Made by a program: the position numbers and the translations under genes
Notes under the pieces: model-generated
Database searches by the model: none
What the model was told of the DNA's origin: nothing
The model's input: only the letters and a program-made list of their open reading frames with translations
NCBI RefSeq assembly: GCF_030684315.1
Contig: NC_081376.1
Span: forward strand, 26,269,018-26,333,017
DNA: 64,000 nucleotides
Direction of reading: 5' to 3'
Origin: Stegostoma tigrinum
Taxonomy: Eukaryota
In this document: positions 28,156 to 63,259 of the stretch, one piece after another
Numbering within the stretch: the first letter of the stretch is position 1
How the letters are laid out: every line of letters starts with the position of its first letter

Positions 28156-28590
28156 GGATTAAATTACTGCAGATGCTGAAATCTCTACTGAAAACAAAAA
28201 AAAATGCTAGAAATCTCTCAGCGGTATTAGGAGCTGCTGATGCTTGAGTGTGAGATAACCAGGTGTAGAGCTGGATGAACACAGCAGACCAGGCAGCATC
28301 AGAGGAGCAGGAAAGCTGACGTTTTGGGTCTGGATCCTTCTTCAGAAAGAAGGGCCTTGACATGAAATGTCAGCTTTCCTGCTCCTCTGATGCTGCCTGG
28401 CTTGCTGTTCTCACCAAGCTCTACATCTTGTTATCTTATGCTAGAAATCACAATGGGTCAGGCAACATTTCAAGTCTAGATGACTCTTCATCAGAGCTGT
28501 TGAAGAGTCGCTTGGACTCAATGTTAGCTTGCTGTCTCACCATGCATGCCGCCTGACCTGTGATATCCAGCTTTTTAATTGTTTTCAGTC
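28156..28590. mobile_element. Older palindromic Penelope pLTR insert (family C) hosting a nested insert
   Basis: ctgaaaacaa...ttgttttcag arms, centre gactcttcatcag/ctgttgaagagtc, degenerate TSD aagctaagaactta/aagctacgatctta. Confidence 0.7.
28218..28437. mobile_element. Palindromic Penelope pLTR insert (subfamily B)
   Basis: Inverted arms agataac...gttatct, tail on left arm, TSD atgctagaaatc at 28204-28215 and 28438-28449. Confidence 0.9.
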
Positions 28591-30440: not shown

Positions 30441-30974
30441 CACATTCACATTGAACATTCTGCTTGTTATTTGTTCAAAGGATGTGGGTGTCATTGGCTA
30501 GACTATCATTTATTCCCCATCCTAATAACCCTGGAGAGAAGAGCTGGTGAGCTGTCTTCTTGAGCTGCTGCACTCTTTAAGATGCAGATACACTCAGTGC
30601 TGTTTGAAAGGGAGATTTTAGCTTGATTTTCAGTGTGACAGGTTGGAGAGAGTATAGTGGTGCACATTCAAACTGTACAGCAATAAGAATAGAGCAGATG
30701 TTAGGCAATTCTTATTACCTTAGAGTGTTTTGGGCCTTGGGATACATTTCCAGGCAATCCAATTGGGTGTTGACTCTCCACCCAGCTAAGATACATTTTC
30801 AGCAGTGGATTAAGCTGACATCATTTAAAGTACATGATTTGGCCTGGTGGTACTTCATGAAACTGTGCAGCGCTTCGGCTTGTCAGATCGTAGTATCAGT
30901 CCACATGGAACCAGTGACAGAAAAACAGTATCGTCAAAATATGTATATTCTCAGGCATTAGGTAGAAATTTATG

Positions 30975-31240
30975 ATAACAAAGTGTGTAACTGGATGAAC
31001 CCAGCAGGCCAAGCAGCATCTCAGGAGCACAAAGGCTGATGTTTCGAGCCTAGACCCTTCATCAGAGAGCCCTCTAGGTGCTAGGAGGTGCTCTAGGAGG
31101 GTCTAGGCGCTCTCTGATGAAGGGTCTAGGCCTGAAACATCAGCCTTTGTGCTCCTGAGATGCTGCTTGGCCTGCTGTGTTCATCCAGCTCCACACTTTG
31201 TTATCTTGGATTCTCCAGCATCTGCAGTTCCCATTATCAC
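30975..31240. mobile_element. Palindromic Penelope pLTR insert (subfamily A) with two hammerheads and 15-bp TSD
   Basis: Arms 30974-31070 and 31109-31205, 35-nt tail on right, aggtagaaatttatg at 30960-30974 and 31241-31255. Confidence 0.95.
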
Positions 31241-32021: not shown

Positions 32022-32224
32022 CAGAAGTCGCATGACACCAGGTTGCTGTCCAATAGGCTTATTTCAAATCACAAGTTTACGTAGTGCTGCTTCATCACTT
32101 GATTATTAAGCACCGATCCAGAAGCTTTAGATTTTCAATAAACCTGTTGGACAACGACCTGGTGTCATGTGACTTCTGACTTAGTCCACCCCAGTCCAAC
32201 GCCACCACCACCACCACCACATCA
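32022..32224. mobile_element. Palindromic insert of a fourth, sequence-unrelated pLTR-like family
   Basis: cagaagtcgcatgacaccagg...cctggtgtcatgtgacttctg arms, remnant cttcatca centre, ~40-nt right-hand tail. Confidence 0.7.
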
Positions 32225-34382
32225 AACCATATACCCAGTATGGTGAATGACATAAGCCTGCACTTGCTTTCAGACTGTCATGTTACTGTGCAAACCATTT
32301 TCCAGGCAGTTAGATTTTGTCCTCTTGCTCTCTGTTAAAATTTACCGTATTAAAATGAGTGTGAAGTGTGTCTGCTGGCTTGATCTGATCTTTGCCCACC
32401 TTTTAACTTTATTTCATGAGGACACGACATGCAAATATATTATATCTAGTGTAGGACACTACACTAGATATAATATATTTGCATGTCGTGTATGTGCATA
32501 GGATTCAATGTATGTCCTAAGTGGCCTAATTTCTAATGTCTTAATTGATAGTTTTGACATTAATTAGTGGCAATTAATTGCTTCTGATAAATGACTGTAT
32601 TGTTTCTTTGACACTCCTACCAAGAAGCTAACCTGTAACACCACATGTTATAACAACCATGCCAACTTCCAGAAGAATTCATCCATATATGAGCAGTAAG
32701 ACATAATAGCCTCCCAGCCAATGTGAAATTAATGTTAATTTTAATGAAATCTCAGCAAGAAGTGATTGTTTTCTAGTGGCTATCGCTTGCAACAGCTTTT
32801 TTGTCCCACTAGAAAAGCTAGTGGGAATGAAAAAGAGGACTTAAATAATCAATTGACGATAGGGAATGACTTTTGGGAAGCTGAGATACTGGGTTGTGAA
32901 TTGTGTTAACAAGTTCTTTCCAGTGCTAAGAAAACTGAATTACAACACTTAAACATTCCACAGTACTTTCCTAGTAAGCTAGTATTAAATTTGAGACTTG
33001 TTCAGTTTTGGGGTTTTCTTTTTAAAAAGCAGCATTTCCAATTAACAGCTCAGATTTCAGGCCAGAAAGTCATTTTCTCAATTAATCATGAGAACACAGT
33101 TGCAGCAAAAAGGATAACAAAAGCAAAATTGGAATGGAAAATAATATCTTTCATTTTTTAAATCTTGCAGTTATTTAGATCAACATAAATATCTTTTTTC
33201 TGAGATTTAGTTGGGGCAGCAATGCTATGGTCCTTTGATTTTCCAAAACTTAGCATTCTTTGTGAGCCTCACACTGAGGCATGACAACAGCAAAACCATA
33301 CTCTGTGACTGATTCAGCACAACTCTCCTTTTAACCTGAACTTTTCTGATATATTTAGTAAGCACTTTGAAGTCTACATTCCAAGTACCACTTTTGGTAA
33401 GGATTGTCACATTCACACTAACTACTGTGTAAAATTTTCATGCAACACTTGAATTGCAACATTTTGATTTTGTTCCACATCCTGATAAAATCTGGTTAAG
33501 AGAAATCAGTTGGAGCTTATGATCAATCATGAGTTGAAAGTGGTTGGGGCTATCTTTGTATTTGGAACGGAATCATTGATCTACTTCCCATTTTTCTGAT
33601 TATGCCTACTTTCATTATTTGACTGTAAGGTCTTTGCTGAAATCAATAAATAGAGAGATACATTGCCTATCTTGGGCTGCATGGGACAAATGGAATTAGA
33701 CAATATGCCAATTGCTACAGTTATTGCGGCATTTATTCTGGGAGAGGACATTTTGAATGACATCAAGGTCTTTCTGCAGATTTGCAGTTTTGTTTTAAGT
33801 AAAGAACGCAAGCTCTTAATTGTGTAACAGTCCCAAGAGGAGTAGTGTTCATTTATTAATTGTAAAGCGTAGGCAGCACACTTCCATGGCACTGTTATAG
33901 CACACAGTCTGAGTGATGAGTCTGTTGACTACATTAATTTGAATGCTTCATTAATGACACCCCCAACATTAAGGCAGGTGAACAGAATGCTTTACAATTA
34001 TCTACAAATCTACCTAATGTAAAAACACACGACAGTTTGCGACCACTTTGCCTGATGTCAAAAATAAAAACAATTACACAGACTTACTCGGGTTATTCCA
34101 TTACCTTGCTTTGGCTTCTAATTTATAACAATGTGATTTATTTTTGGGAAGGAAAATATAATTTCAATTATTCTTGGGAATGGCTAATTAACTAACTGAT
34201 TGGTCAATTCTGCATGTCTGAAGATTCTCTCTCTTAACCTCCATTTCTCACATTCCTCGTCATTTTTTCTCTCTTTAACATTTTCTCACAAGTGCAGTAT
34301 ATTGAGAAAGTGAAACAAACAGCCAGTTTATGTATTTTTATATATTTTATACAATTTTATACAATTTACAGTTGATGCAATT

Positions 34383-45599: not shown

Positions 45600-47282
45600 C
45601 TGATGCAGTTACGAGGAATTCTGCAAGCTGTGCCATTGTTGAAACTCTCGCACATTATCGATGTCAAAAGGAAATGGTGCATAAATTTTGCAACGAGTTG
45701 AGTTTATTTTGATGCCTTCTGAGAGGAGAGTTTGATCTGATTTTTGGGGCCTCTAATCACAATCCTTCTTAGACTGCAGTAGAGAAGAGAAGAGGCAAAG
45801 AGAGGCTGTAAGCAGAGGAAGGAGGAGAATGAGGATGATGAGCAAGAAGGGATTACATTTCTTCAAATGGGCTGCTGATAAGTAACATGTTAGACTCCCA
45901 CTCCTTTAAAACCATCCCAGCATCAACACTGCTCCTTTCTCCCCACCAATTCTAAACTATAGACACTGTCCATCATAATAGAGTGTTTACCAAAAATTAA
46001 ATAAAAAATGCTGTAAGAAAGGAAGAAAAACAACTTAAGCAAACTATACTTTCAATAATACATGAAAATCTCAACTATTCACTTTTATGCATTCTTCTGC
46101 TGTCTGTCAAACAAGTGCCGTTACCCTGTTCTCCCTGTGCAGTGCCTCCTCAGTGTATTCAGCATGGCTGATCAAATGATACTCATTTCACTGGGACAAA
46201 GTGTAGATGGCCTGAACAGCATAACTTTAAGTAACTCTGTGGCCTTGGGACCTCACCTTAGACTGCAATATCTCAGCATGGGCATCAAAACTCTTGGTCT
46301 AATGGCTGAGAGGCAAAATTGAGAGCATAACAAGAATGGTGGTCATGGGAGTATGAATGTTGACATCCTGAGAGAGAATGATAGATTTGTTCTCCATGAT
46401 GTTATGACTGTTCAGTGACCCTTACAATGTGTTGGATGACACGTTGCTGTGACAGCCTGCATGCCCTTGGAGGATTGGCATCTGCAGCCATGGTGGCATT
46501 GTTGGAACCTGCATGGAACTCAGGACTGCAGTTTGAGCTTCTGCCACAACACTGAAGCATTGAATGATTTGTGACTGTGCTGTAACAAAGACTGGGCGAA
46601 TGGCCACCGCAAGTATTGTCATGGCATCGAGCCTCATTTCTACACTGGAAAGAATGAGTTCCAAGCTCTGCAGAAATTCCTGTGTCGGGTTGGAGCCAAC
46701 TCTTTCACGCTCCTTGATTGTGGCAAAATGTCGTATGGCAGGCCTGGCAATGTTTCAAGCATCTTCCTGTCCATGCCCATCCATGTTTTTTTGTATATTA
46801 CCTTATTGTAGCCCACATTAGAATTTGCAGCAGAGCCTGTATGCTATGTCACTCTTTTGTCTGGCTGCAGCTGATTCATGCCTGGGGCCTCACAATGTAA
46901 TACTGGCCCTTAATCCTTTCTACTCTCTGCAAGTATCAAGCCCGGCCACTGCAAATGTCAGGTCCAATGACTTCGCTTCTTCATTCGACAGCTGCTATTC
47001 ATCTCACTCTTGCAGGTGAGGCTGCAATGGCTGGTCAGGCAGAGGAATCTTGGGTTTCTGAAAGCAGGAATGCAGAAAGGGAGGAATGGGATCAGGGATG
47101 GGAGTGTTAAGTTATCATACAAAGATAAATGATAACACACTCTTCGATGTTTTCTGGAGATGGAATTCAATGCATTGCACCATATCCTCAGAGCTGGACT
47201 CCCAGGAATCGACCTTGTTGGCTGTTCCTTTTGGAAGATGTTTCTTCAGGATATCCTGCAGAGCCATTATGTCTCTCATACT
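45600..47282. mobile_element. Probable Harbinger remnant (acidic transposase C-terminus on +, convergent Myb-gene 3' exons on -)
   Basis: EEGGE*G**ARR-type acidic/purine-rich patch at 45780-45860; ELILSSVEMRLDAMTILAVAI coiled-coil-like ORF on minus; weak. Confidence 0.4.
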
Positions 47283-48320
47283 AGATAATAAAATGTGTGG
47301 CTGGATGAGCACAGCAGGCCAAGCAGCATCTCAGGAGCACAAAAGCTGACGTTTCGGGCCTAGACCCTTCATCAGAGAAGGGGATGGGGTGAGGGTTCTG
47401 GAATAAATAGGGAGAGAGGGGGAGGCGGACCGAAGATGGAGAGAAAAGAAGATAGGTGGAGAGAGTATAGGTGGGGAGGTAGGGAGGGGATAGGTGAGTC
47501 CAGGGAAGACGGACAGGTCAAGGAGGTGGGATGAGGTTAGTAGGTAGATTGGGGTGCGGCTTGGGGTGGGGGGAAGGGATGGGTGAGAGGAAGAACAGGT
47601 TAGGGAGGCAGAGACAGGTTGGACTGGTTTTGGGATGCAGTGGGTGGAGGGGAAGAGCTGGGCTGGTTGTGTGGTGCAGTGGGGGGAGGGGACGAACCGG
47701 GCTGGTTTAGGGATGCAGTTGGGGAAGGGGAGATTTTGAAACTGGTGAAGTCCACATTGATACCATTAGGCTGCAGGGTTCCCAGGAGGAATATGAGTTG
47801 CTGTTCCTGCAACCTTCGGGTAAAAATCTCCCCTTCCCCAACTGCATCCCTAAACCAGCCCAGTTCGTCCCCTCCCCCCACTGCACCACACAACCAGCCC
47901 AGCTCTTCCCCTCCACCCACTGCATCCCAAAACCAGTCCAACCTGTCTCTGCCTCCCTAACCTGTTCTTCCTCTCACCCATCCCTTCTCCCCACCCCAAG
48001 CCGCACCCCCATCTACCTACTAACCTCATCCCACCTCCAACCCCACCAATCCCGTCTTCCCTGGACTGACCTATCCCCTCCCTACCTCCCCACCTATACT
48101 CTCCTCTCCACCTATCTTCTTTTCTCTCCATCTTCGGTCCGCCTCTCCCACTCTGCCTATTTATTCCAGAACCCTCACCCCATCCCCCTCTCTGATGAAG
48201 GGTCTAGGCCCGAAATGTCAGCTTTTGTGCTCCTGAGATGCTGCTTGGCCTGCTGTGCTCATCCAGCCTCACATTTTATTATCTTGGATTCTCCAGCATC
48301 TGCAGTTCCTATTATCTCTG
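47283..48320. mobile_element. 1.04-kb palindromic Penelope-like insert (subfamily A)
   Basis: Arms 47283-47737 and 47823-48284, 36-nt tail on right, TSD atgtctctcatact at 47269-47282 and 48321-48334; encodes the GIY-YIG C-terminus RRLQEQQLIFLLGTLQPNGIN. Confidence 0.95.
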
Positions 48321-48380
48321 ATGTCTCTCATACTGCAGGTTTATATCAGTAAGACACCTAACAGCCAATCTGAGGATAAC

Positions 48381-49782
48381 AGATAACAAGGTGTAGAGTT
48401 GGATGAACACAGCAGGCCAAGCAGCATCTTTGGAGCTGATGTTTCGGGTCTAGACCCTTCATCAGAAATGGGGGAGGGGGAGAGGGTTCTGAAATAAATC
48501 GGGAGAGTGGGGGATGCGGATTGAAGACCGATAGAGGAGAAGATAGGTGGAGAGGAGACAGACAAGTTAAAGAGGCGGGGAAGGAGCCAGTAAAGGTGAG
48601 TGTAGGTGGGGAGGTAGGGAGGAGATGGGTCAGTTTGGGGAGGACGGACAGGTCAAGGGAGTGGGATGAGGTTAGTAGGTAGGAAATGGGGTGGGGCTTG
48701 ACATGGGAGGAGAGGATAGGTGAGAAGAAGAACAGGTTAGGGAGGTGGGGACGAGCTGGGCTGGTTTTGGGGCGCGGTTGGGGAAGGGGTGATTTTTTGA
48801 AGCTTGTGAAATCCAAATTGATACCATTCGGCTGCAGGGTTCCCAAGCGGAATATGAGTTGCAGGTCCTGCAACCTTCGGGTGGCATCATTTTGTGGCAC
48901 TGCAGGAGGCCAGGATGGACATGTTGTCTGAGGAATGGGAGGGGGAGTTGAAATGGTTCGTGACTGGGAGGTGCAGTTGTTTGTTGCAAACCGAGCGTAG
49001 GTGTTCTGCAAAGCAGTCCCCAAGCCTCCCCTTGGTTTCCCCGATGTAGAGGAGGCCACAACAGGTCCAGCGGATGTAGTACACCACATTGCCCGATGTG
49101 CAGGTCAACATCTGCTTGATGTGGAAAGTCTTCTTGGGGCCTGGGATGGGGTTGAGGGGGGAGGTGTGGGGGCAGGTGTAGACTTCCTTGCAGGGAAGAG
49201 TGCTGGGTGTGGTGGGGTTGGAGGCGAGTGTGGAGCGGACAAGGGAGTCACAGAGAGAGTGGTCCCTCCAGAAAGCAGACAAGGGTGGGGAGGGAAAACT
49301 GTCTTAGGTGGTAGGGTCGGATTGCGGATGGAGTAAGTGCTGGAGGATGATGCGTTGGATCCGGAGGTTGGAGGGGTGGTACGTGATGACGAGAGGGATT
49401 CTCTTATGGTTGATATTGCGGGGACGTGGTGTGAGGGATGAGGTGCGGGAAATGCGGGAGACACGGCCGAAGGCGTTCTCAGCCACTGTGGGGGGATGTT
49501 GCAGTCCTTGAAAAAGGAGGACATCTGAGATGTGCGGGAGTGGAATGCCTCATCCTGGGAGCAGATGCGCTGGAGGCGAAGGAATTGGGAATGGAGGTGG
49601 CATTTTTGCAGGAAGGTGGGTGGGAGGAGGTCTATTCTAGGTAGCTGTGGGAGTTGGTGGGCTTGAAATTGATATTGGTTTCTAGCTGGTTGCTGGAGAC
49701 GGAGACAGAGAGATCCAGGAAGGTGAGGGAGGTGTTAGAGAGGGCCCAGGTGAACTTGAGGTTGGGGTGGAAGGTGTTGTTT
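48381..49782 (-). mobile_element. 5'-truncated Penelope-like retroelement (RT C-terminus, Cys-containing linker, GIY-YIG endonuclease, hammerhead pLTR); probably Neptune-type; frameshifted
   Basis: NTFHPNLKFTW, RIPLVITYHP, PCKEVYTC, NVVYYIRWTCCGLLYIGETKGRL...EH...NHF, LGTLQPNGIN. Confidence 0.92.
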
Positions 49783-49865
49783 AAGTCCTGTAGACTTGTT
49801 TTAATTGTATGAAATGACAGAAGTTGGAAAAAATTAAATCTACGTTGTAAATGAAAAAAGTAATC

Positions 49866-51310: not shown

Positions 51311-51693
51311 ACATCTTTGAGGAAGATTAACAGGTGGAACTAGGAATTGAGTTGAAAATTGGGATGTTGTTTGATCAGTTGTCCCACTTTGATGTCACTG
51401 CTGGGATCTTTCAGATGCTTCCAGCTCCTGGACTCAGACAGGTATCTGCACACCACCTCACAGTGATGTGCCAAAAGGCCATCTATGTTACCTCTTGATT
51501 ACACAACAATATTGACTCACTGTGATGTGATGGCCTTGAACAGCTGAGTTCACCAGACATCTTGTCGCAGCCCACCAACACCCCCAACCCCACGCTACTT
51601 TGGTGTCCGATCAGCTGTAACTACAATAATAATATTTTTAAATTTATTGAGTGATGTCTCCATTTTGATGTGTGCAGCTCACATTCTCCTACG

Positions 51694-51824
51694 ATAGTAA
51701 AATGTGAGGCTGGATGAACACAGCAGGCCAAGCAGCTCCTGAGATGCTGCTTGGCCTGCTGTGTTCATCCAGCCTCACATTTTATTATCTTGGAATTCTC
51801 CAGCATCTGCAGTTCCCATTATCT
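51694..51824. mobile_element. Minimal 131-bp Penelope-derived hairpin insert (no hammerhead) with 16-bp TSD
   Basis: ~43-bp arms, 9-nt loop tcctgagat, right tail; ctcacattctcctacg at 51678-51693 and 51825-51840. Confidence 0.95.
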
Positions 51825-52314
51825 CTCACATTCTCCTACGTTGTGTTGGCAATGCCAACATTTGCTGGTGTGACTCCTAGCCAGACATTGCTATGGGCCC
51901 TCACACTGGTGCCCCTGTTCCATTTGGGCATCATCATTAATTTGACCCTTGTGGAAAAAATTAAAATTGATGGCCCACAACCCCAATCTGGGATCCAGAA
52001 TTTTGGCCAATATCAGGACGATGAGCCATCCTTGACATCTCAGGCCAATGGCAATAAGATATAGATGTATCACTGATATAGCGTACATTGGAACCTGTTA
52101 ATGAAACTACCCAGTGTCCATTTCTGTATGAAACAATGAATTTGAGAATAAGATGGCTTTGATAAAGGTTGGCTAATCGATGATATTTTTGCAATAAGAA
52201 GGAAACTGAAATTCTAACCCATTGTATAACATTGAGCCAGCAAATTCAAAGCACCATTGTTTTAAATGTCAAACGTTATTTTAAATTCGAAACATTTGGA
52301 ACACAGCAGAAGCT

Positions 52315-53066: not shown

Positions 53067-53730
53067 ATTATATCTGAAGTGGAGATGCTCTGAGAGATGT
53101 GAAAATGTTCTATAAACTCAAGCCTTTTATATTTATAGTCAATAGTTGAAACGTGATATACACGGTGTTAAAGAGTCTAACACTGCTGCTGATGCAGACT
53201 TGCGAAATAATGACCTTTTGCCCTTCAATAACTGATGCACTGTATCCTGGGAATTATAGCATTAATACAGTGATATTGCCTCTGTTAGATGGAAAAGCAA
53301 ATTAAGCGGATGGTTATGTAATTGAATGTTGTCACTAGCAGGCAAGAGCAGGTCCTGTATTCACAAACCTAACTACATGGTTCATTAAATAAATGAACTA
53401 TATAAAACATTGTTCAAGATTGCATCCTTGTAAAATAACCTCTGTTTTCTCCGGCGCTTCGTTGAAGAACAGCTGCCAGTGTAAGATATCATGAAATGTA
53501 CTGAAGTTTTATTGTTTCTCTTTTTCAATGACCTGTGTATGTTGCTGTGATTTTTTTTCAGTTATGATAGAAAATCCTTTTGGCATAATCCTACACTACT
53601 GAAAGAAAACTAAGGGCTGAATCTTATGTTTTTTTGGCTGAGTTTAAGTTCTGTTGAGTTTGGAGTGTTATTTCCTTGAGGTCTAGAGAGTTCTCAATTT
53701 GCCTGACCAAACTTGCCTCATTAATTGCCT

Positions 53731-53903
53731 CAGAGATAATGGGAACTGCAGATGCTGGAGAATTCCGAGCTCTGATGAAGGGTCTAGGCCCGAAATGTCA
53801 GCTTTTGTGCTCCTGAGATGCTGCTTGGCCTGCTGTGTTCATCCAGCCTCACATTTTAGAACAGTACAGCACAGAACATGCCCTTCAGCCCACAATTTTA
53901 TTA
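53731..53903. mobile_element. Penelope insert: inverted tail joined to one hammerhead arm, 13-bp TSD, containing a 36-bp CR1 tail stub
   Basis: tcattaattgcct at 53718-53730 and 53904-53916; tail 53731-53766 reversed; arm from ~53769. Confidence 0.92.
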
Positions 53904-54087
53904 TCATTAATTGCCTACTCTGTCCCTATGATTTCTCTGTTGTCTGATTTCTGCTGCATTTTATCGCATACTCTTTGCAATGAAACTCACCACTCAGCAG
54001 ATATATGTCCAATACCAACATCCCTTGTACCCGTGCCAAATTTGAAAGGCCACTGTGTATCCAGGTTAAGTGTTGGCAATCTGGTGT

Positions 54088-55803: not shown

Positions 55804-57137
55804 CTGAGGAGTCAAAGTTACTTTGAGTTAATGTACTGCAGAATCTTAATTTTCTTCAGGCTTAAAGGTTTGTTTGTGTGTTTATGTGTGTTATTTTCAA
55901 AAAGGTTAATTAAGCATATTGCATGTTTTAAATCATTTGTTTATAATTTGTGCATCTTTGTTTAACTCTTTTTTCCCAATAATCCATCATTTGCTTACTG
56001 CAGGAACCAGGCTGACTTGTTTCGAAAAATGTGATCTATAGACTAATACAGTTGGCAATATCAACTCCCATTAAAATTTAAATTTGATTGTGGCCAGTGG
56101 CAAGAGGGATGAAGGAAATAAATCAGTTCACTCACACTAACTTGGTTGTAAAAAGCGCCAGTCCTTAAACTGGAGTCCGTGTGTATGAAATTAAGTCACT
56201 GTATCTTATCATCTGCTCTGCATTTGCTTTCATCCTCGAGGACAAACAGTTCTTCGGTGCCTGAAATTAAAAGATGAGGGCTGGTCTAATGAGGAGAGGG
56301 AAGAATGGAAGAAGGGCATTGTTACAATGTATGCAATTTATGAAGCAGAGGGGATGAGACATAAGTGAGAAGTGATATGAGAAAAGGAGGATTAACTATA
56401 CAGAGAGCTTTTGTCCTTCTAGTCTCATCAATGACCATGCGTTCAGTTATTCCTTTCCCAAGATGGTTAGCAATATCTGTTCAACGGGGGTTGCACAATG
56501 CAAGTGGACTTGTTCTCCTTCAGTTCTTTCTTGTTACTTGCTGTCATGCATCACCTTCTGCAAAAGAGGGGGAGCTTCATCAGTAAATGTCGTAAATTAT
56601 GTTTGGATGACGGTTGAACAGTTGTTAGGAAGTGTGAACATGTGTAATGTTTGTAACAATGTTAAGAGGGAGAGGATGAGGTAAAGCAGGAAAGTTAAGT
56701 ATTGAATGATTATTGTTGGTAGACAGTTACTGGAGGTCAGAGGGTTCTACAGCGTAGACAAAGGCCCTTCAGCCCATTGAAAGATGTTAAGGATTGAATG
56801 GTGTATGAGGCTGTTGGTAGAATATGGTGCTTCAAGATGATCTCAGTTACTTGAACAATTTGTGTCAGATCATTAAGCGCCTGTCTGCATTGCATCCATG
56901 TTGTTGGAGGACCATTCTTATTATTGATCTCTACTGTTGGTAGGCTTTCCTTTGGAAATTGAACATGACAGGGAGGATGAAGAGAGGCCGCTCCCATGAA
57001 GTATGTTATCAGAAAGTTCACCCATTTCATTTTTTTTTTGCACAATCTGAGTAAACCTGTGAGGCAACAGTCAATATATTTGCCTGAAATTATCATGCAG
57101 GAAGCTATTCCATTTAAACTACACATTAGAGTTCCTA

Positions 57138-57349
57138 GAGATAGTGGGAACTGCCGATGCTGCAGAATCTGAGGTAACAGGGTGTGAAGCTGGATGAAGA
57201 CAGCAGGCCAAACAGCATCAGAGGAGCAGAAAAGTTTGACGTTTCGGGTTGAGATTCTTCTTCAGAAAATCTGAAGAAGAGCCTTGACCCGAAACGTCAA
57301 ATTTTTCTGCCCCTCTGATGTTGCTTGGCCTGCTGTGCTCATCCAGATT
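57138..57349. mobile_element. Palindromic Penelope pLTR insert (subfamily B)
   Basis: Centre cttcttcaga-aaa-tctgaagaag, tail on left, TSD cacattagagttccta / cacattcgagttccta at 57122-57137 and 57350-57365. Confidence 0.92.
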
Positions 57350-58582
57350 CACATTCGAGTTCCTATTTTACTTTCTTGAGTCTTAGGGTTCTGGAGCAGT
57401 CCTAATTGCCTTTGAGAAGGTGGTGATAAGCTACATTCTTGAACAACTTTTGTTGTGTGGAGTAGATATTATCCACAGTGCCATGTAGAGAGACAGGGTG
57501 CGCACGTGTGCACTTGTGATCATGTTTCTCTAAAGTGGGTGAAATGGATAACACAGCCCTTTGTAAAATACCTGTTTATTTGGTTAAGAATACAATTATA
57601 GGAATTCCTCTTATATTTTCTTATACCAGTCCTGAAGTTACTCTCCTGAAGCCATCGACCACGCTATCTGATTGCACTGTTCCGGACAATGAGAAATATC
57701 TTGTTGTGGAATATGTTATTTAGTCCCCTTACAATCCTAAAAGTAGTGATAATATCAATGTCCAATTTTCTCCCTTCCAGTGTGAACGCCCCCGGACTAA
57801 TGATGCAGCCAAACTGGAACCCAAGAAAGTTTTTTATCTAATGTGGCAGGTTAAAGCAGGTCTGGGAACAAGTAGACAATTAGACAGACAGACAAAAGCT
57901 TAATGCTTATAACTGATGAGGTTTATTCACCCAAAGCTGTTAGGTGCAATGATGAACAAGGCTTTAACAGGAATTATCTTCCAGCGTACATCTCCTAAAT
58001 CTCAACTCCTTCATGTCCTCAAACTGAACTATTCCACTCCTTATCTGTCCAGTGTTAAATTTTGGGTGTTTGTGACCACGGTTATCTAACTATAGACAGT
58101 TAAACATTTGTAAAGAATTTTCAGATAGCTTATTAAGAAGCAGCAATGTAAATGTGATAAATTAGTTAATTAGACAAAAATGATATGAAAGTTGGAAGAA
58201 TTGAGAATGGTTCCCTAATATCAGAGGACAAACAGGCAGTTGGATCATTTAAATTGTGGCATCCTGCTGTCCAGCTAAATAAGAAATTCCTCTCTGATTC
58301 TTCCTTCAATCTTTTAACGTCCACGTTCTACATGAAGAAGGCAGCTTCCTGATGAGGGCTATCCTCTGACACTGAGCACTTGTTAATGTACTCAATTTCT
58401 AGGGGCTGGTAGTTTATGCCATGTCAATCGCCCATTTGGATTCTTTCCAGTCAATGGCCATGAGATAACTTCTCATGATATCAAGATAAACATTCCCTGT
58501 TTATCCAACTTCATCTGAAGGTTAGTTTTCATTCTTTTTGCAACGGAACCTTTTACTTCCCTGAATAGTGCATTACTTACAG

Positions 58583-58859: not shown

Positions 58860-59735
58860 GCCTATCTATCATTGCGTCTAGTGTAAATTGAATATATATG
58901 CCTTCACTCCTCTAATCAAAATCATTGAGGTAAATTATAAAAGTGTTGTGGCCCCAGCACAGACCTGTGCTGGACACTGCTCATCACACCTCGCCAACCA
59001 GGACAAGTCCTATTTTTGAAAACAGTTTTCTACCAGCCAGCTAATTGTCTTGCCATGGTCTATACCATTACACAATGAGCTCCTACTTTGTTCAATGTCC
59101 TTTTTAAGTGACATCTTGTCAAATGCATTTTGCAAATCCGAATGCAGTGCAGTACATTTACAGATGTCCCTGCATGTTATGCCTTATGAGAGTTCCAGTG
59201 CATTGCTTAAATATGATTCCCCTTCCACAAAATTGTATTGATTCTTCCTGATTATCTTGCGATTTTCCAAGTGTGCAGCTATAACCTTCTGTATGCTCCT
59301 TAATGATTAATTCTAATAGCTTCCTGACGACAGATGTCAAGCTAAGTAGGCTAGAATTTCCTAATTTCAGCTGCCCTCTTTTTGAAAGAACGGGTTACAT
59401 TTGCAACTGAGCTGTTTGATGCAACCTTCCCAGAATCTAGCAAATTTTGGAAAGTTAACGTCAAAGTAGCTACTAAGATAACACAGTGTGGAGCTGGAGG
59501 AATACAGTAGGCCAGGCAACATCAGAGGAGCAAGAAAGCTGATGTTTCGGGTTGGGACCCAAATTTTCTGAAGGGTCCCAACCTGAAATGTCAACTTTCC
59601 TGCTCCTCTGATGCTGCCTGGCCTGCTGTGTTCCTCCAGCTCCACACTGTGTTCTTTCTGACTCCAGCATTAACAGTTCTTACTATCTTTGAGTGAGTCA
59701 TACCAAAGTATCTACTATCTCTTTTGCCATCACTT
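58860..59735 (-). mobile_element. Old CR1 RT fragment interrupted by a PLE palindrome
   Basis: Reverse strand NPFFQKEG, LTSVVRKLLELIIK, DLQNAFDK, PAQVCAG. Confidence 0.8.
59476..59703. mobile_element. Palindromic Penelope pLTR insert (subfamily B)
   Basis: Arms meet at gggaccc-aaattttctgaa-gggtccc, tail on right, TSD caaagtagctacta / caaagtatctacta at 59462-59475 and 59704-59717. Confidence 0.9.
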
Positions 59736-61280
59736 TGAAGACTCTCTTCAGACTCTTAAGTGCTTCAGAACAACTTAATTTGGTGGCCACTCCCAGAAGA
59801 GGCAATGCAGACTCCTGGTTGCTATCTAGATGGCAGCTAACATACCCATCACCACTATTGAATCCAGTCCATGATTTAATTTTTTAAAATCCTCACAGAA
59901 CTTCCAAAGTACATTGAACTTTGGTATCAAAACTATAGTTTGAGCATTCATTGAGAGACTGTTATTGCCCTATCAAAAGCATCCCTACTTCCTTTGCCTA
60001 ATTTTTTGTATTTTAGTTGCTCCACTGTTTTTAGTTCTTTGTTCAGGTGAACTTCCCCATTTTTTCAGACCTAACGTAAGTTATGACTGGAAAACGCCCT
60101 TACCGATTAATTGGCACTATTTTTGAATAGCTTCTGACTGCCTAGACACTCAATCTACAATAAGTTGAGTACCTCAGTGTCTCTTGGTGGCCTTCCCAAA
60201 GGCTGCACGAGATCTATAGCAATTCTTTCAAAGGCTACCTCAGTTATGGGAGGAGAGATTAATGGATCATTCAGTACTATTTGTCAGTCTGGACAGAAAT
60301 TACAATACACTTGCATTTTGTTGTAAATTTCTAGTAGAAAGGATTATGATTTTCTCCTTTTTTTGTACATTTGTGTGCTGCCTCACAATTGTCTATACAA
60401 CAGATGTAACATTAGCTGTTGAAAGGGTTTTACAACTAAGTGATTTCATCTCCAATCTCTTTCCATGGTGACTGGTCTTCCTACATAATTCATTCTCAAC
60501 CGACCCTCTTCAATTTACCTTTTGTTAGCTGAACATGATGCAATTTGCCATTTTATTGAGTGTTCCGCCCTAAGGAAGATCTGATCCACAACTTCCAAAA
60601 GGTTAGGCCAAGGAGAAAGGACCTGAATCCACAAGAGCTAGAAATTCTTTGCACTTGGCTCCAATCTGATATACATCAACCATCCAGCCAACTAAGTTAA
60701 CTAGTTGCCCCATGGAGTCCATGTTGCTGTGGCAACATGCACTTTTACATTTTATTGTATCCTGGACCTACAGGTAGTAATGGTAGATTATGTACACCGC
60801 CTCAAAGTATTATCCTATTGAGGGCTCTCAAAAACCTATGGCTGACATATTGTCATTCTCTCATTGTTACAGTTTTTCACATACATCATGTGGCACAATG
60901 TGATCATTTTAATAAACTTGCACCAAATCTCTAATGTTCATGACCTGTTTGAGGTTAAAACAAGCAAAGCATGATTCAGTGTAGTTAATTTATACTTTTT
61001 TTGTTGCCCAGAAAATTAATTGTAATTGAGTGATGATCTGTTTGAAGTAGGATGGATTGGAAAGGTGAGCAAACCAGTGTATACAGATAACTTTGTATTG
61101 AGTTAAATCCTTGAAGGGAATTAACGTGCTTTCAGGCTTAATATTGCTGTTGCCTTGAAAATAGGTAATTACTAAGTGTATCAGAGATAATGGGGACTGC
61201 AGATGCTGGAGATTCCAAGATAATAAAATGTGAGGCTGGATGAACACAGCAGGCCAAGCAGCATCTCAGGAGCACAAAAG

Positions 61281-61312
61281 CTGACGTTTCGGGCCTAGAC
61301 CCTTCATCAGAG
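61281..61312 (-). ncRNA. Minimal type I hammerhead ribozyme motif (intact core)
   Basis: CU-CUGAUGA-A-GGGU(CUAG)GCCC-GAAAC-GUC-AG; same motif at 47346-47377(-); variants at 48192(+), 53772(+), 62622(+), 31114(+), 57271(+). Confidence 0.8.
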
Positions 61313-61986
61313 AGGGGGATGGGGGGAGGGAACTGGAATAAATAGGGAGAGAGGGGGAGGCGGACCGAAGATGGAGAGTAAAGAAGATAGGTGGAGAGAG
61401 TGTAGGTGGGGAGGTAGGGAGGGGATAGGTCAGTCCAGGGAAGACGGACAGGTCAAGGAGGTGGGATGAGGTTAGTAGGTAGCGGGGGGTGCGGCTTGGG
61501 GTGGGAGGAAGGGATGGGTGAGAGGAAGAACCGGTTAGGGAGGCAGAGACCGGTTGGACTGGTTTTGGGATGCAGTGGGTGGGGGGGAAGAGCTGGGCTG
61601 GTTGTGTGGTGCAGTGGGGGGAGGGGACGAACTGGGCTGGTTGAGGGATGCAGTAGGGGAAGGGGAGATTTTGAAACTGGTGAAGTCCACATTGATACCA
61701 TATGGCTGCAGGGTTCCCAGGCGGAATATGAGTTGCTGTTCCTGCAACCTTCGGGTGGCATCATTGTGGCAGTGCAGGAGGCCCATGATGGACATGTCAT
61801 CAAGAGAATGGGAGGGGGAGTGGAAATGGTTTGCGACTGGGAGGTGCAGTTGTTTTTTGCGAACTGAGCGGAGGTGTTCTGCAAAGCGGTCCCCAAGCCT
61901 CCGCTTGGTTTCCCCAATGTAGAGGAAGCCGCACCGGGTACAGTGGATGCAGTATACCACATTGTATACACAGTATACACATATTC

Positions 61987-62397
61987 CACTGTATCCGGTG
62001 CGGCTTCCTCTACATTGGGGAAACCAAGCGGAGGCTTGGGGACCGCTTTGCAGAACACCTCCGCTCAGTTCGCAAAAAACAACTGCACCTCCCAGTCGCA
62101 AACCATTTCCACTCCCCCTCCCATTCTCTTGATGACATGTCCATCATGGGCCTCCTGCACTGCCACAATGATGCCACCCGAAGGTTGCAGGAACAGCAAC
62201 TCATATTCCGCCTGGGAACCCTGCAGCCATATGGTATCAATGTGGACTTCACCAGTTTCAAAATCTCCCCTTCCCCTACTGCATCCCTCAACCAGCCCAG
62301 TTCGTCCCCTCCCCCCACTGCACCACACAACCAGCCCAGCTCTTCCCCCCCACCCACTGCATCCCAAAACCAGTCCAACCGGTCTCTGCCTCCCTAA
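61987..62397 (+). pseudogene. 5'-truncated PLE GIY-YIG endonuclease reading frame (mirror copy 61535-61964 on minus)
   Basis: (NVVYCI)HCTRCGFLYIGETKRRLGDRFAEH...VANHF...RRLQEQQLIFRLGTLQPYGIN, uninterrupted, followed by a Pro/Ser repeat; no start context or RT. Confidence 0.9.
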
Positions 62398-62619
62398 CCG
62401 GTTCTTCCTCTCACCCATCCCTTCCTCCCACCCCAAGCCGCACCCCCCGCTACCTACTAACCTCATCCCACCTCCTTGACCTGTCCGTCTTCCCTGGACT
62501 GACCTATCCCCTCCCTACCTCCCCACCTACACTCTCTCCACCTATCTTCTTTACTCTCCATCTTCGGTCCGCCTCCCCCTCTCTCCCTATTTATTCCAGT
62601 TCCCTCCCCCCATCCCCCT

Positions 62620-62651
62620 CTCTGATGAAGGGTCTAGGCCCGAAATGTCAG
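62620..62651 (+). ncRNA. Minimal hammerhead ribozyme motif (GAAAU variant)
   Basis: ctctgatgaagggtctaggcccgaaatgtcag. Confidence 0.75.
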
Positions 62652-63259
62652 CTTTTGTGCTCCTGAGATGCTGCTTGGCCTGCTGTGTTCATCCAGCCTC
62701 ACATTTTATTATCTTAATTACTAAGTGTGTTTTGTTTTATTCCAGAAGTGAGTGGTTACGTTTAACTAGGCCATAAAAGGACCACACAAATTAATCACTA
62801 CATATAGCTAGCAGTTATACGTTCTACCTTTACTGTGTTCCTTCATCAATTCATTGTTCTCTCTACCACTACTACTGTCGTAAGAAGGCTGTCTTTTGTA
62901 GGACTTGGGTGATAATTAGACTGCACTACAAATTTGAAAAATATTGAGTATAATTAATTGAAGAAAATTGCACATAGGGGAAAAGTCCTTATCATCTATC
63001 ACTCTTATGCTCACTCGTTAACATTGGCTTTTTATTATTCATTTGTGAGATGTGAGCAAGAACTATCACAGTTAAAGTGCTGTTGGTTTACCACAGTGCT
63101 GTTACGAATGTGGCCTCAGGATTTCCACCCAACTGTGAAAGAACAGCAGTGTAGTTCCAAACCAGGAGGGTGTATAACTTGATAAGGGGGTTTGTGAGTG
63201 GTGTGTCAGTGTTTGCTTTCAGAAAGTAAAACTTGTGGTTGGGGAAAGTGCTTTATTTT

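Follow-up and report, generated by a model that had tools for sequence, protein, structure and literature searches.

A 64,000-nt stretch of the Stegostoma tigrinum genome (NCBI RefSeq GCF_030684315.1, contig NC_081376.1, positions 26,269,018 to 26,333,017 of the forward strand), referred to here as the window and numbered from its first base, contains the 3′ end of a Penelope-like element (PLE) arranged as a head-to-head palindrome at 47283-48322. The palindrome is framed by an identical 14-nt target-site duplication (TSD), which overlaps the element end by 2 nt. The right arm ends in a tail that the left arm lacks, and the two are referred to as the tailed and tailless arms. Based on a survey of this family, we propose that such palindromes probably arise by twin priming, in which reverse transcription begins at two start sites on one RNA and the resulting complementary DNAs (cDNAs) are joined by microhomology.

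Positions within the element are given as the distance (d) from the end of the tail, with the natural long copy L106 serving as ruler (Table 1). The right arm, including the tail, covers 47823-48322 (d=493 to d=1). The initial annotation had assigned the tail to the right arm only and some 85 nt of endonuclease sequence to the left arm only; on the ruler both hold, the latter as 84 nt followed by a base that fits neither arm. Its observation that the tailed arm is the further-reaching one at 61.2-62.7 kb was likewise correct. In that young copy a tailed arm (61180-61964, to d=785), a 20-nt insert and a tailless arm (61985-62715, to d=768) lie within a 14-nt TSD, the tailed arm being 17 nt longer and the arms mismatching at 2 of 724 positions. 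The 47-kb copy is older, with mismatches at 15 of 449 common positions, so that later change at its centre is possible; its arms have eight older sub-lineage alleles and two private alleles in common. By itself this locus does not decide the mechanism, and the case rests on the whole family.

Table 1 Features of the 47-kb palindrome and of two comparison copies in the window
Feature	Position	Strand	Details
Left TSD	47269..47282	+	14 nt
Tailless arm (PLE 3′ end)	47283..47821	-	d=39 to d=577; endonuclease C-terminus, 3′ untranslated region and hammerhead-like core; 96% identity to the 61-kb copy
Minimal-hammerhead-like core, left arm	47348..47375	-	CTGATGA...GAAACGTC; predicted cut at d=103
Stretch exclusive to tailless arm	47738..47821	-	84 nt; endonuclease C-terminal coding, translates to TRRLQEQQLIFLLGTLQPNGINVDFTS
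Single centre-junction base	47822..47822		matches neither arm
Tailed arm, portion in common with left arm	47823..48284	+	d=493 to d=39; contains a short altered patch and a 3-nt insert
Hammerhead-like core, right arm	48192..48219	+	one C>T change
First ATTATCT heptamer	48278..48284	+	ends at d=39 (tailless start cluster)
Tail, right arm only	48285..48320	+	36-38 nt
Second ATTATCT heptamer	48311..48317	+	ends at d=6 (tailed start cluster)
Right TSD	48321..48334	+	14 nt
Copy with tail-only tailed arm	53718..53916		no overlap with tailless arm (d=133 inward)
Young comparison palindrome	61166..62728		with TSDs

The window copy represents only the 3′ end of the element, and the reverse transcriptase (RT) and endonuclease (EN) domains were read from L106. 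Its 763-aa frame matches RVT_1 (E=3.4e-5, residues 236-389) and GIY-YIG (E=0.0026, residues 623-662), both weakly and under the Pfam cut-offs, contains the RT motifs DKG and YIDD, and gave no domain match to RNase H. A CCHH motif has two cysteines inside GIY-YIG (VVYCIHCTRCGFLYIG, then histidines), and the CX2-5CxxC motif of the RT-EN linker is present as CNRTKCYTC (CX4CxxC). These motifs define EN-containing (EN+) PLEs and the Neptune/Nematis type in PMC8557442, and by those definitions the sequence is that of an EN+ PLE of Neptune/Nematis type. Further EN+ PLE hallmarks were found, namely an inverted truncated copy, a 30-40-nt tail at one end and a partial tandem, or pseudo-long terminal repeat (pseudo-LTR), in L042, where 182 nt of the 3′ end directly precede a 3,528-nt monomer. 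L042 was initially scored as having the longer tailless arm and was rescored as tailed-longer once its tandem was recognised. Genome-wide, exact tail junctions number at least 33,018, and the core immediately inside the tail has 76,633 matches.

Arm pairing, target sites and template

Copies were located by sequence patterns instead of a DNA-similarity search, as the latter skips common words. From contig C1 alone, 180 segments of 10 kb were taken using a tail pattern (80 of 91 regions), a core pattern (40 of 55, 15 redundant ones being dropped) and an RT-region pattern (60 of 81). Together with the window they yielded 169 distinct head-to-head pairs, not counting any in which further element fragments separated the arms, the gap exceeded 160 nt or an end lay <60 nt from the locus edge. 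A tailed arm faced a tailless arm in 161 of the 169 pairs, and in 36/38 and 40/41 pairs of the sets not chosen by tail. The exceptions were four tail/tail and four tailless/tailless pairs, which look nested and none of which has a TSD of ≥8 nt (one has 7 nt).

The tailless arm is not nested within the tailed arm. Of the 161 pairs, 81 had the longer arm on the tailless side and 69 on the tailed side, with 11 equal; the corresponding counts were 69, 59 and 10 for the 138 pairs with a TSD of ≥12 nt, and 17, 15 and 1 for long young copies (arm difference ≤0.5%). Near-symmetric copies were unbiased (7:6:1 among long copies, 31:33:10 among all), and long copies with no arm mismatch had the tailless rather than the tailed arm longer by 7:3, with L192 the extreme (2,899 versus 960, i.e. 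1,939 nt longer). No age-dependence of the asymmetry was detected, as judged from its correlation with arm divergence (rho -0.006, n=59). Arms overlapped in nearly all copies. The exception in the window is the 53.7-kb copy, whose tailed arm consists of tail only, as does that of L102 (48 versus 1,246).

TSDs of ≥13 nt flank 83 of 88 young palindromes, compared with 17 of 70 single-arm copies (p=7e-21), and TSDs of ≥12 nt flank 138 of the 161 tailed/tailless pairs. They are not a product of chance, since joining the flanks of different loci gave a TSD of ≥10 nt in 0/147 pairs. The target profile from the empty sites of 106 palindromes forms a dyad (r=0.80 against its own reverse complement; column-shuffle maximum 0.61). 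Its A-rich positions at -16 to -14 and -10 have T counterparts at +14 to +16 and +10, which is what a cut by a symmetric dimer would give.

The outer ends of the arms fall into two clusters, d=36-42 for tailless and d=1-7 for tailed arms, with an ATTATCT heptamer beside each, and single-arm copies can begin at one or the other (57 tailed, 32 tailless). The tail in L042 continues straight into the next monomer and some tailed junctions extend 1-9 nt into the monomer start; the tailed end is thus an internal position of the RNA. Folding of the start-site region gave no stable structure and none better than shuffles (z=0.10), so the stem-loop of the anole element is not confirmed here.

Both arms appear to derive from one template lineage. 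At 10 diagnostic sites in 36 young palindromes, 260 comparisons of sub-lineage single-nucleotide polymorphisms (SNPs) showed only 3 to be discordant between the arms; between loci, 2,478 of 8,746 (28%) were. Arm ends lay ≤20 nt apart in 14 of 70 long copies, whereas permutation gave 1.8% (maximum 10%). This concordance and closeness rule against two RNAs as the norm; the former could partly reflect conversion between arms. We found no arms from different RNAs except for a local patch in the young copy L209, where they differ at two sub-lineage sites within a cluster of five differences.

Two palindromes some 350 kb apart on C1, L197:4544-9023 and L198:4547-9029, have the same centre and the same two arm-specific variants, differ from each other in both arms at two outer sites, and have different TSDs. 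Ectopic gene conversion is the likely source of their common centre.

Palindrome centres and a hammerhead-like core

The young set provided 83 centre junctions, 54 without and 29 with an insert. Microhomology at the insert-free junctions averaged 1.80 nt versus 0.60 nt under the null (null maximum 1.09 in 2,000 draws), and of the inserts of ≥7 nt, 16 were listed, 13 of which include a copy of at least 7 nt of nearby sequence, the latter being a raw count with no null. Both features resemble polymerase-theta-type joining. Microhomology is not specific to twin priming and does not tell the models apart.

The core letters and short palindromic helix III of the hammerhead-like core are present, the motif type being as in PMC4209133. 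Rfam returned no hammerhead match in the region; its hairpin-shaped miRNA matches, under gathering scores, were discarded as palindrome artefacts. By hammerhead core numbering, the predicted cut lies at d=103, directly before a self-complementary AGCT. Genome-wide, 727 perfect palindromes with zero spacer are centred on this position, compared with 24 on the control 4-mer GGCC (d=76) and ~53 on ACGT (d=108, CpG decay allowed for). Among 15 such loci checked, 13 were tailed/tailless, one was tail/tail without a TSD and one was ambiguous. Two cDNAs run off a ribozyme-cut end could pair by 4 bp, whereas a snap-back at the same point would form a 1-bp stem. Among 67 short copies, a second cluster of stops, at d=131-137, takes in the ends of 22 tailed and 26 tailless arms, with both arms included in 12 copies. 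This cluster lies just upstream of the hammerhead-like core, also occurs in single-arm copies, and possibly marks a transcription start or an RT stop.

Some centres are unusual in content. At L064:8222-8349 and L122:2599-2750 the centre spacers, 126 and 150 nt long, are copies, at 99-100% identity, of host DNA lying 0.5-1.8 kb away, and the insert at L118:2819-2837 resembles three telomere-like CCCTAA units. Several small rearranged element fragments occupy the centres of the long copies L151, L155, L160, L168, L203 and L207, some of them derived from beyond both arm ends.

Two primed cDNAs as the probable origin, and the alternatives

The sequences as they stand display the palindromic structure, the pairing of arms, a balanced asymmetry, one template lineage, intact TSDs, a dyad target, and microhomology or copied inserts at the centres. 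Asymmetry alone is the weaker argument for twin priming; stronger are the retained TSDs, the two-fold symmetry of the target and the position of centres at the predicted ribozyme cut. That at least two priming events occur, in some form, is in our judgement likely. Under twin priming, a predicted protein dimer would make a chromosomal cut staggered by 14 nt, and both cut ends would prime reverse transcription on the same RNA, one RT at each of two sites with starts ~35 nt apart. As the protein appears to have no RNase H, the second RT would displace the first cDNA, and host end-joining, presumably polymerase-theta-like, would fuse the two cDNA ends. Unequal arms would arise as the RT drops off and as ends are trimmed during joining, and in some cases perhaps by later central deletion. 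We would give even odds to the broader proposal that twin priming is the normal route of this element, with the dimer holding one RNA at the two ATTATCT sites, a 14-nt cut, copying from both ends, joining by the host, and ribozyme-cut RNA as a real template in vivo. Because the host would join the cDNAs, this route would require no second-strand synthesis step, and, if true, it would explain the PLE tail, the inverted pseudo-LTRs and the TSD together.

The initial annotation had taken the presence of exclusive sequence in each arm to indicate two independent primings from the ends of a ~14-nt staggered cut, one at the RNA end and the other internal. Two primings at staggered ends on one RNA remain the core of the scheme, with the tailless arm not nested and SNPs in common. 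Independence and a start at the RNA end have been abandoned: both starts are internal, and the primings appear coordinated, one per site and on the same template lineage. The asymmetry itself is real, and alone is no proof of two primings, since long perfect palindromes lose their centres quickly in the mouse germ line (PMC8701086) and the long palindromic arms of this family fall short of single-arm copies in length.

Simple tail-primed snap-back fails, because the tailed arm exceeds the tailless arm by the microhomology plus at least 3 nt, as such a process demands, at only 24 of the 54 young insert-free junctions. An extended version, in which the tail alone primes, the cDNA snaps back, copying stops or the endonuclease trims at d~39, and the centre is then rapidly and asymmetrically deleted, is unlikely but draws on several points that weigh against twin priming. 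Self-priming is the published reading of the inverted junction (PMC3846280) and endonuclease resolution that of the tail (PMC8557442). Snap-back predicts identical arms and strict tailed/tailless pairing, and the observed arm concordance fits it as well as it fits twin copying. Central deletion is fast in mice, with symmetry lost in ~35% of offspring (reviewed in PMC8701086), and as mouse palindromes lose symmetry within one generation, the age-independence of the asymmetry does not exclude very early deletion. The L197 and L198 pair indicates that centres can change after insertion, and microhomology and locally copied inserts are equally expected from later repair of centre breaks. Palindromic arms of >200 nt have a median of about 690-720 nt, against 1,350 nt (tailed) and 894 nt (tailless) for single-arm copies (Kolmogorov-Smirnov p=0.08 and 0.71), a shortfall that central loss would give and that fits snap-back with deletion. 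Single-arm copies with damaged TSDs could themselves be deleted palindromes. The loci come from one contig and were selected by exact motifs, which biases them towards young copies, and the assembly contains neither a second copy nor an empty allele of the 47-kb site. In vitro, moreover, PAc, a Poseidon PLE of Anolis, showed no start-site difference between strands and so gave no biochemical sign of coordination (PMC11167929). Against this, snap-back requires deletion in 30 of the 54 young insert-free copies, while near-symmetric and short copies have no tailed bias, and it leaves unexplained the full TSD on the end-joined tailless side (83/88), given that ordinary 5′ junctions lose the TSD. 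At the 727 cut-site centres it would have to rely on a stem of 1 bp and a loop of 2 nt, or on the untemplated addition of specific bases, and tail ends are RT start sites in vitro (PMC11167929).

A combination of the two processes, in which both ends prime, one long cDNA snaps back and its self-copy anneals to a short cDNA at the other site, would account for either arm being longer, for intact TSDs, identical arms and microhomology. We regard it as more doubtful still, since the central spacer is 0-2 nt in 11 of 49 near-symmetric copies, non-overlapping tail-only arms require no snap-back, and loops of up to 1-3 kb would be needed (L192, L178). Dual priming on different RNAs, and separate insertion of two copies at a single site, are largely refuted and very improbable. 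In their favour are the patch in L209 and the occurrence of nested tail/tail and tailless/tailless neighbours, and gene conversion between arms could mask discordance. Set against them are the scarcity of discordant sites, the correlated arm lengths, and the finding that no TSD of ≥8 nt flanks any tail/tail or tailless/tailless pair. Spread of palindromes as whole units, via read-through transcripts of older palindromes, is hardly credible: the common centre and arm-specific variants of L197 and L198 are what it would produce, yet this is one such pair among 70 long palindromes and the outer-site differences fit ectopic conversion better.

Known systems and further copies

The element resembles Neptune/Nematis EN+ PLEs (PMC8557442, PMC3846280) in combining an RT with a C-terminal GIY-YIG, in its partial tandems and inverted 5′-truncated copy, and in the 30-40-nt tail at one end, the TSD and the hammerhead-like motif. 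It departs from the published reading of those elements, self-priming with endonuclease resolution, in that two primed cDNAs are favoured. For PAc (Frangieh 2024, PMC11167929), both target strands were cut and extended in vitro, two internal RT start sites bound the tail, and a dimer was predicted; there were no reads ending at the ribozyme cut. PAc belongs to another clade, and the parts of the main text of PMC11167929 available to us contain no link to inverted insertions. The strict use of one site per arm and the 727 predicted-cut centres belong to the present element.

L1 twin priming, like the dual priming proposed for L1 (PMC2837659), is similar in that both nicked strands prime, cDNAs are joined internally and the inverted fragments lie between TSDs. 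For L1 this is a variant route, in which the second start is internal and variable, yielding non-overlapping fragments (PMC2837659; bioRxiv 10.1101/2024.12.14.628481) with internal deletion (PMC2837659). In contrast, the second start here has a fixed place, ~35 nt away from the first, palindromes result from the almost complete overlap of the cDNAs, and the route accounts for roughly half of the young copies (88 palindromes, 70 single-arm copies). On balance the mechanism is probably twin priming on a single RNA, with fixed start sites and overlapping cDNAs. Asymmetric centres created by small deletions are also known from centre-break revision of mammalian palindromes (PMC8701086). That process acts after formation and does not explain fixed outer ends, TSDs or ribozyme-site centres.

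A literature search, which did not reach older subscription papers, found no paper applying twin priming to PLE palindromes, and the accessible text of a 2026 retrozyme preprint has no passage bearing on it. The component parts are already published, and the search brought up no paper that combines them. The origin of tandem and inverted PLE insertions has been named an open question (PMC8557442), and the steps following initiation are unvalidated in the sole in vitro study (PMC11167929). The insertion statistics presented here favour a specific scheme over the published self-priming reading, and the cut-site centres are indirect in vivo evidence for copying of hammerhead-cut RNA. If the scheme is true, tens of thousands of palindromes in this genome arose as palindromes, with consequences for genome stability, double-stranded RNA production and repeat annotation.

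Other copies in the window include an older related PLE arm (~84% identical) at 48381-49786, 46 nt past the right TSD of the 47-kb palindrome. The 53.7-kb copy has a 13-nt TSD, identified by eye, and ~42 nt of other sequence close to its right end. Further short palindromes of the same family and older relatives lie at 30974-31238, 51693-51826, 57137-57355, 28253-28436 and 59480-59653, the first with a 40-nt centre built of repeated short pieces. Two short self-complementary stretches (32022-32178 and 32422-32491) have no match to the PLE family. Elsewhere, palindromes contain internally deleted short monomers, in which the monomer start is joined to the last 158-274 nt (L031:7796-8525, L078:5681-6109, L056, L073, L075 and L088); these are likely non-autonomous derivatives.
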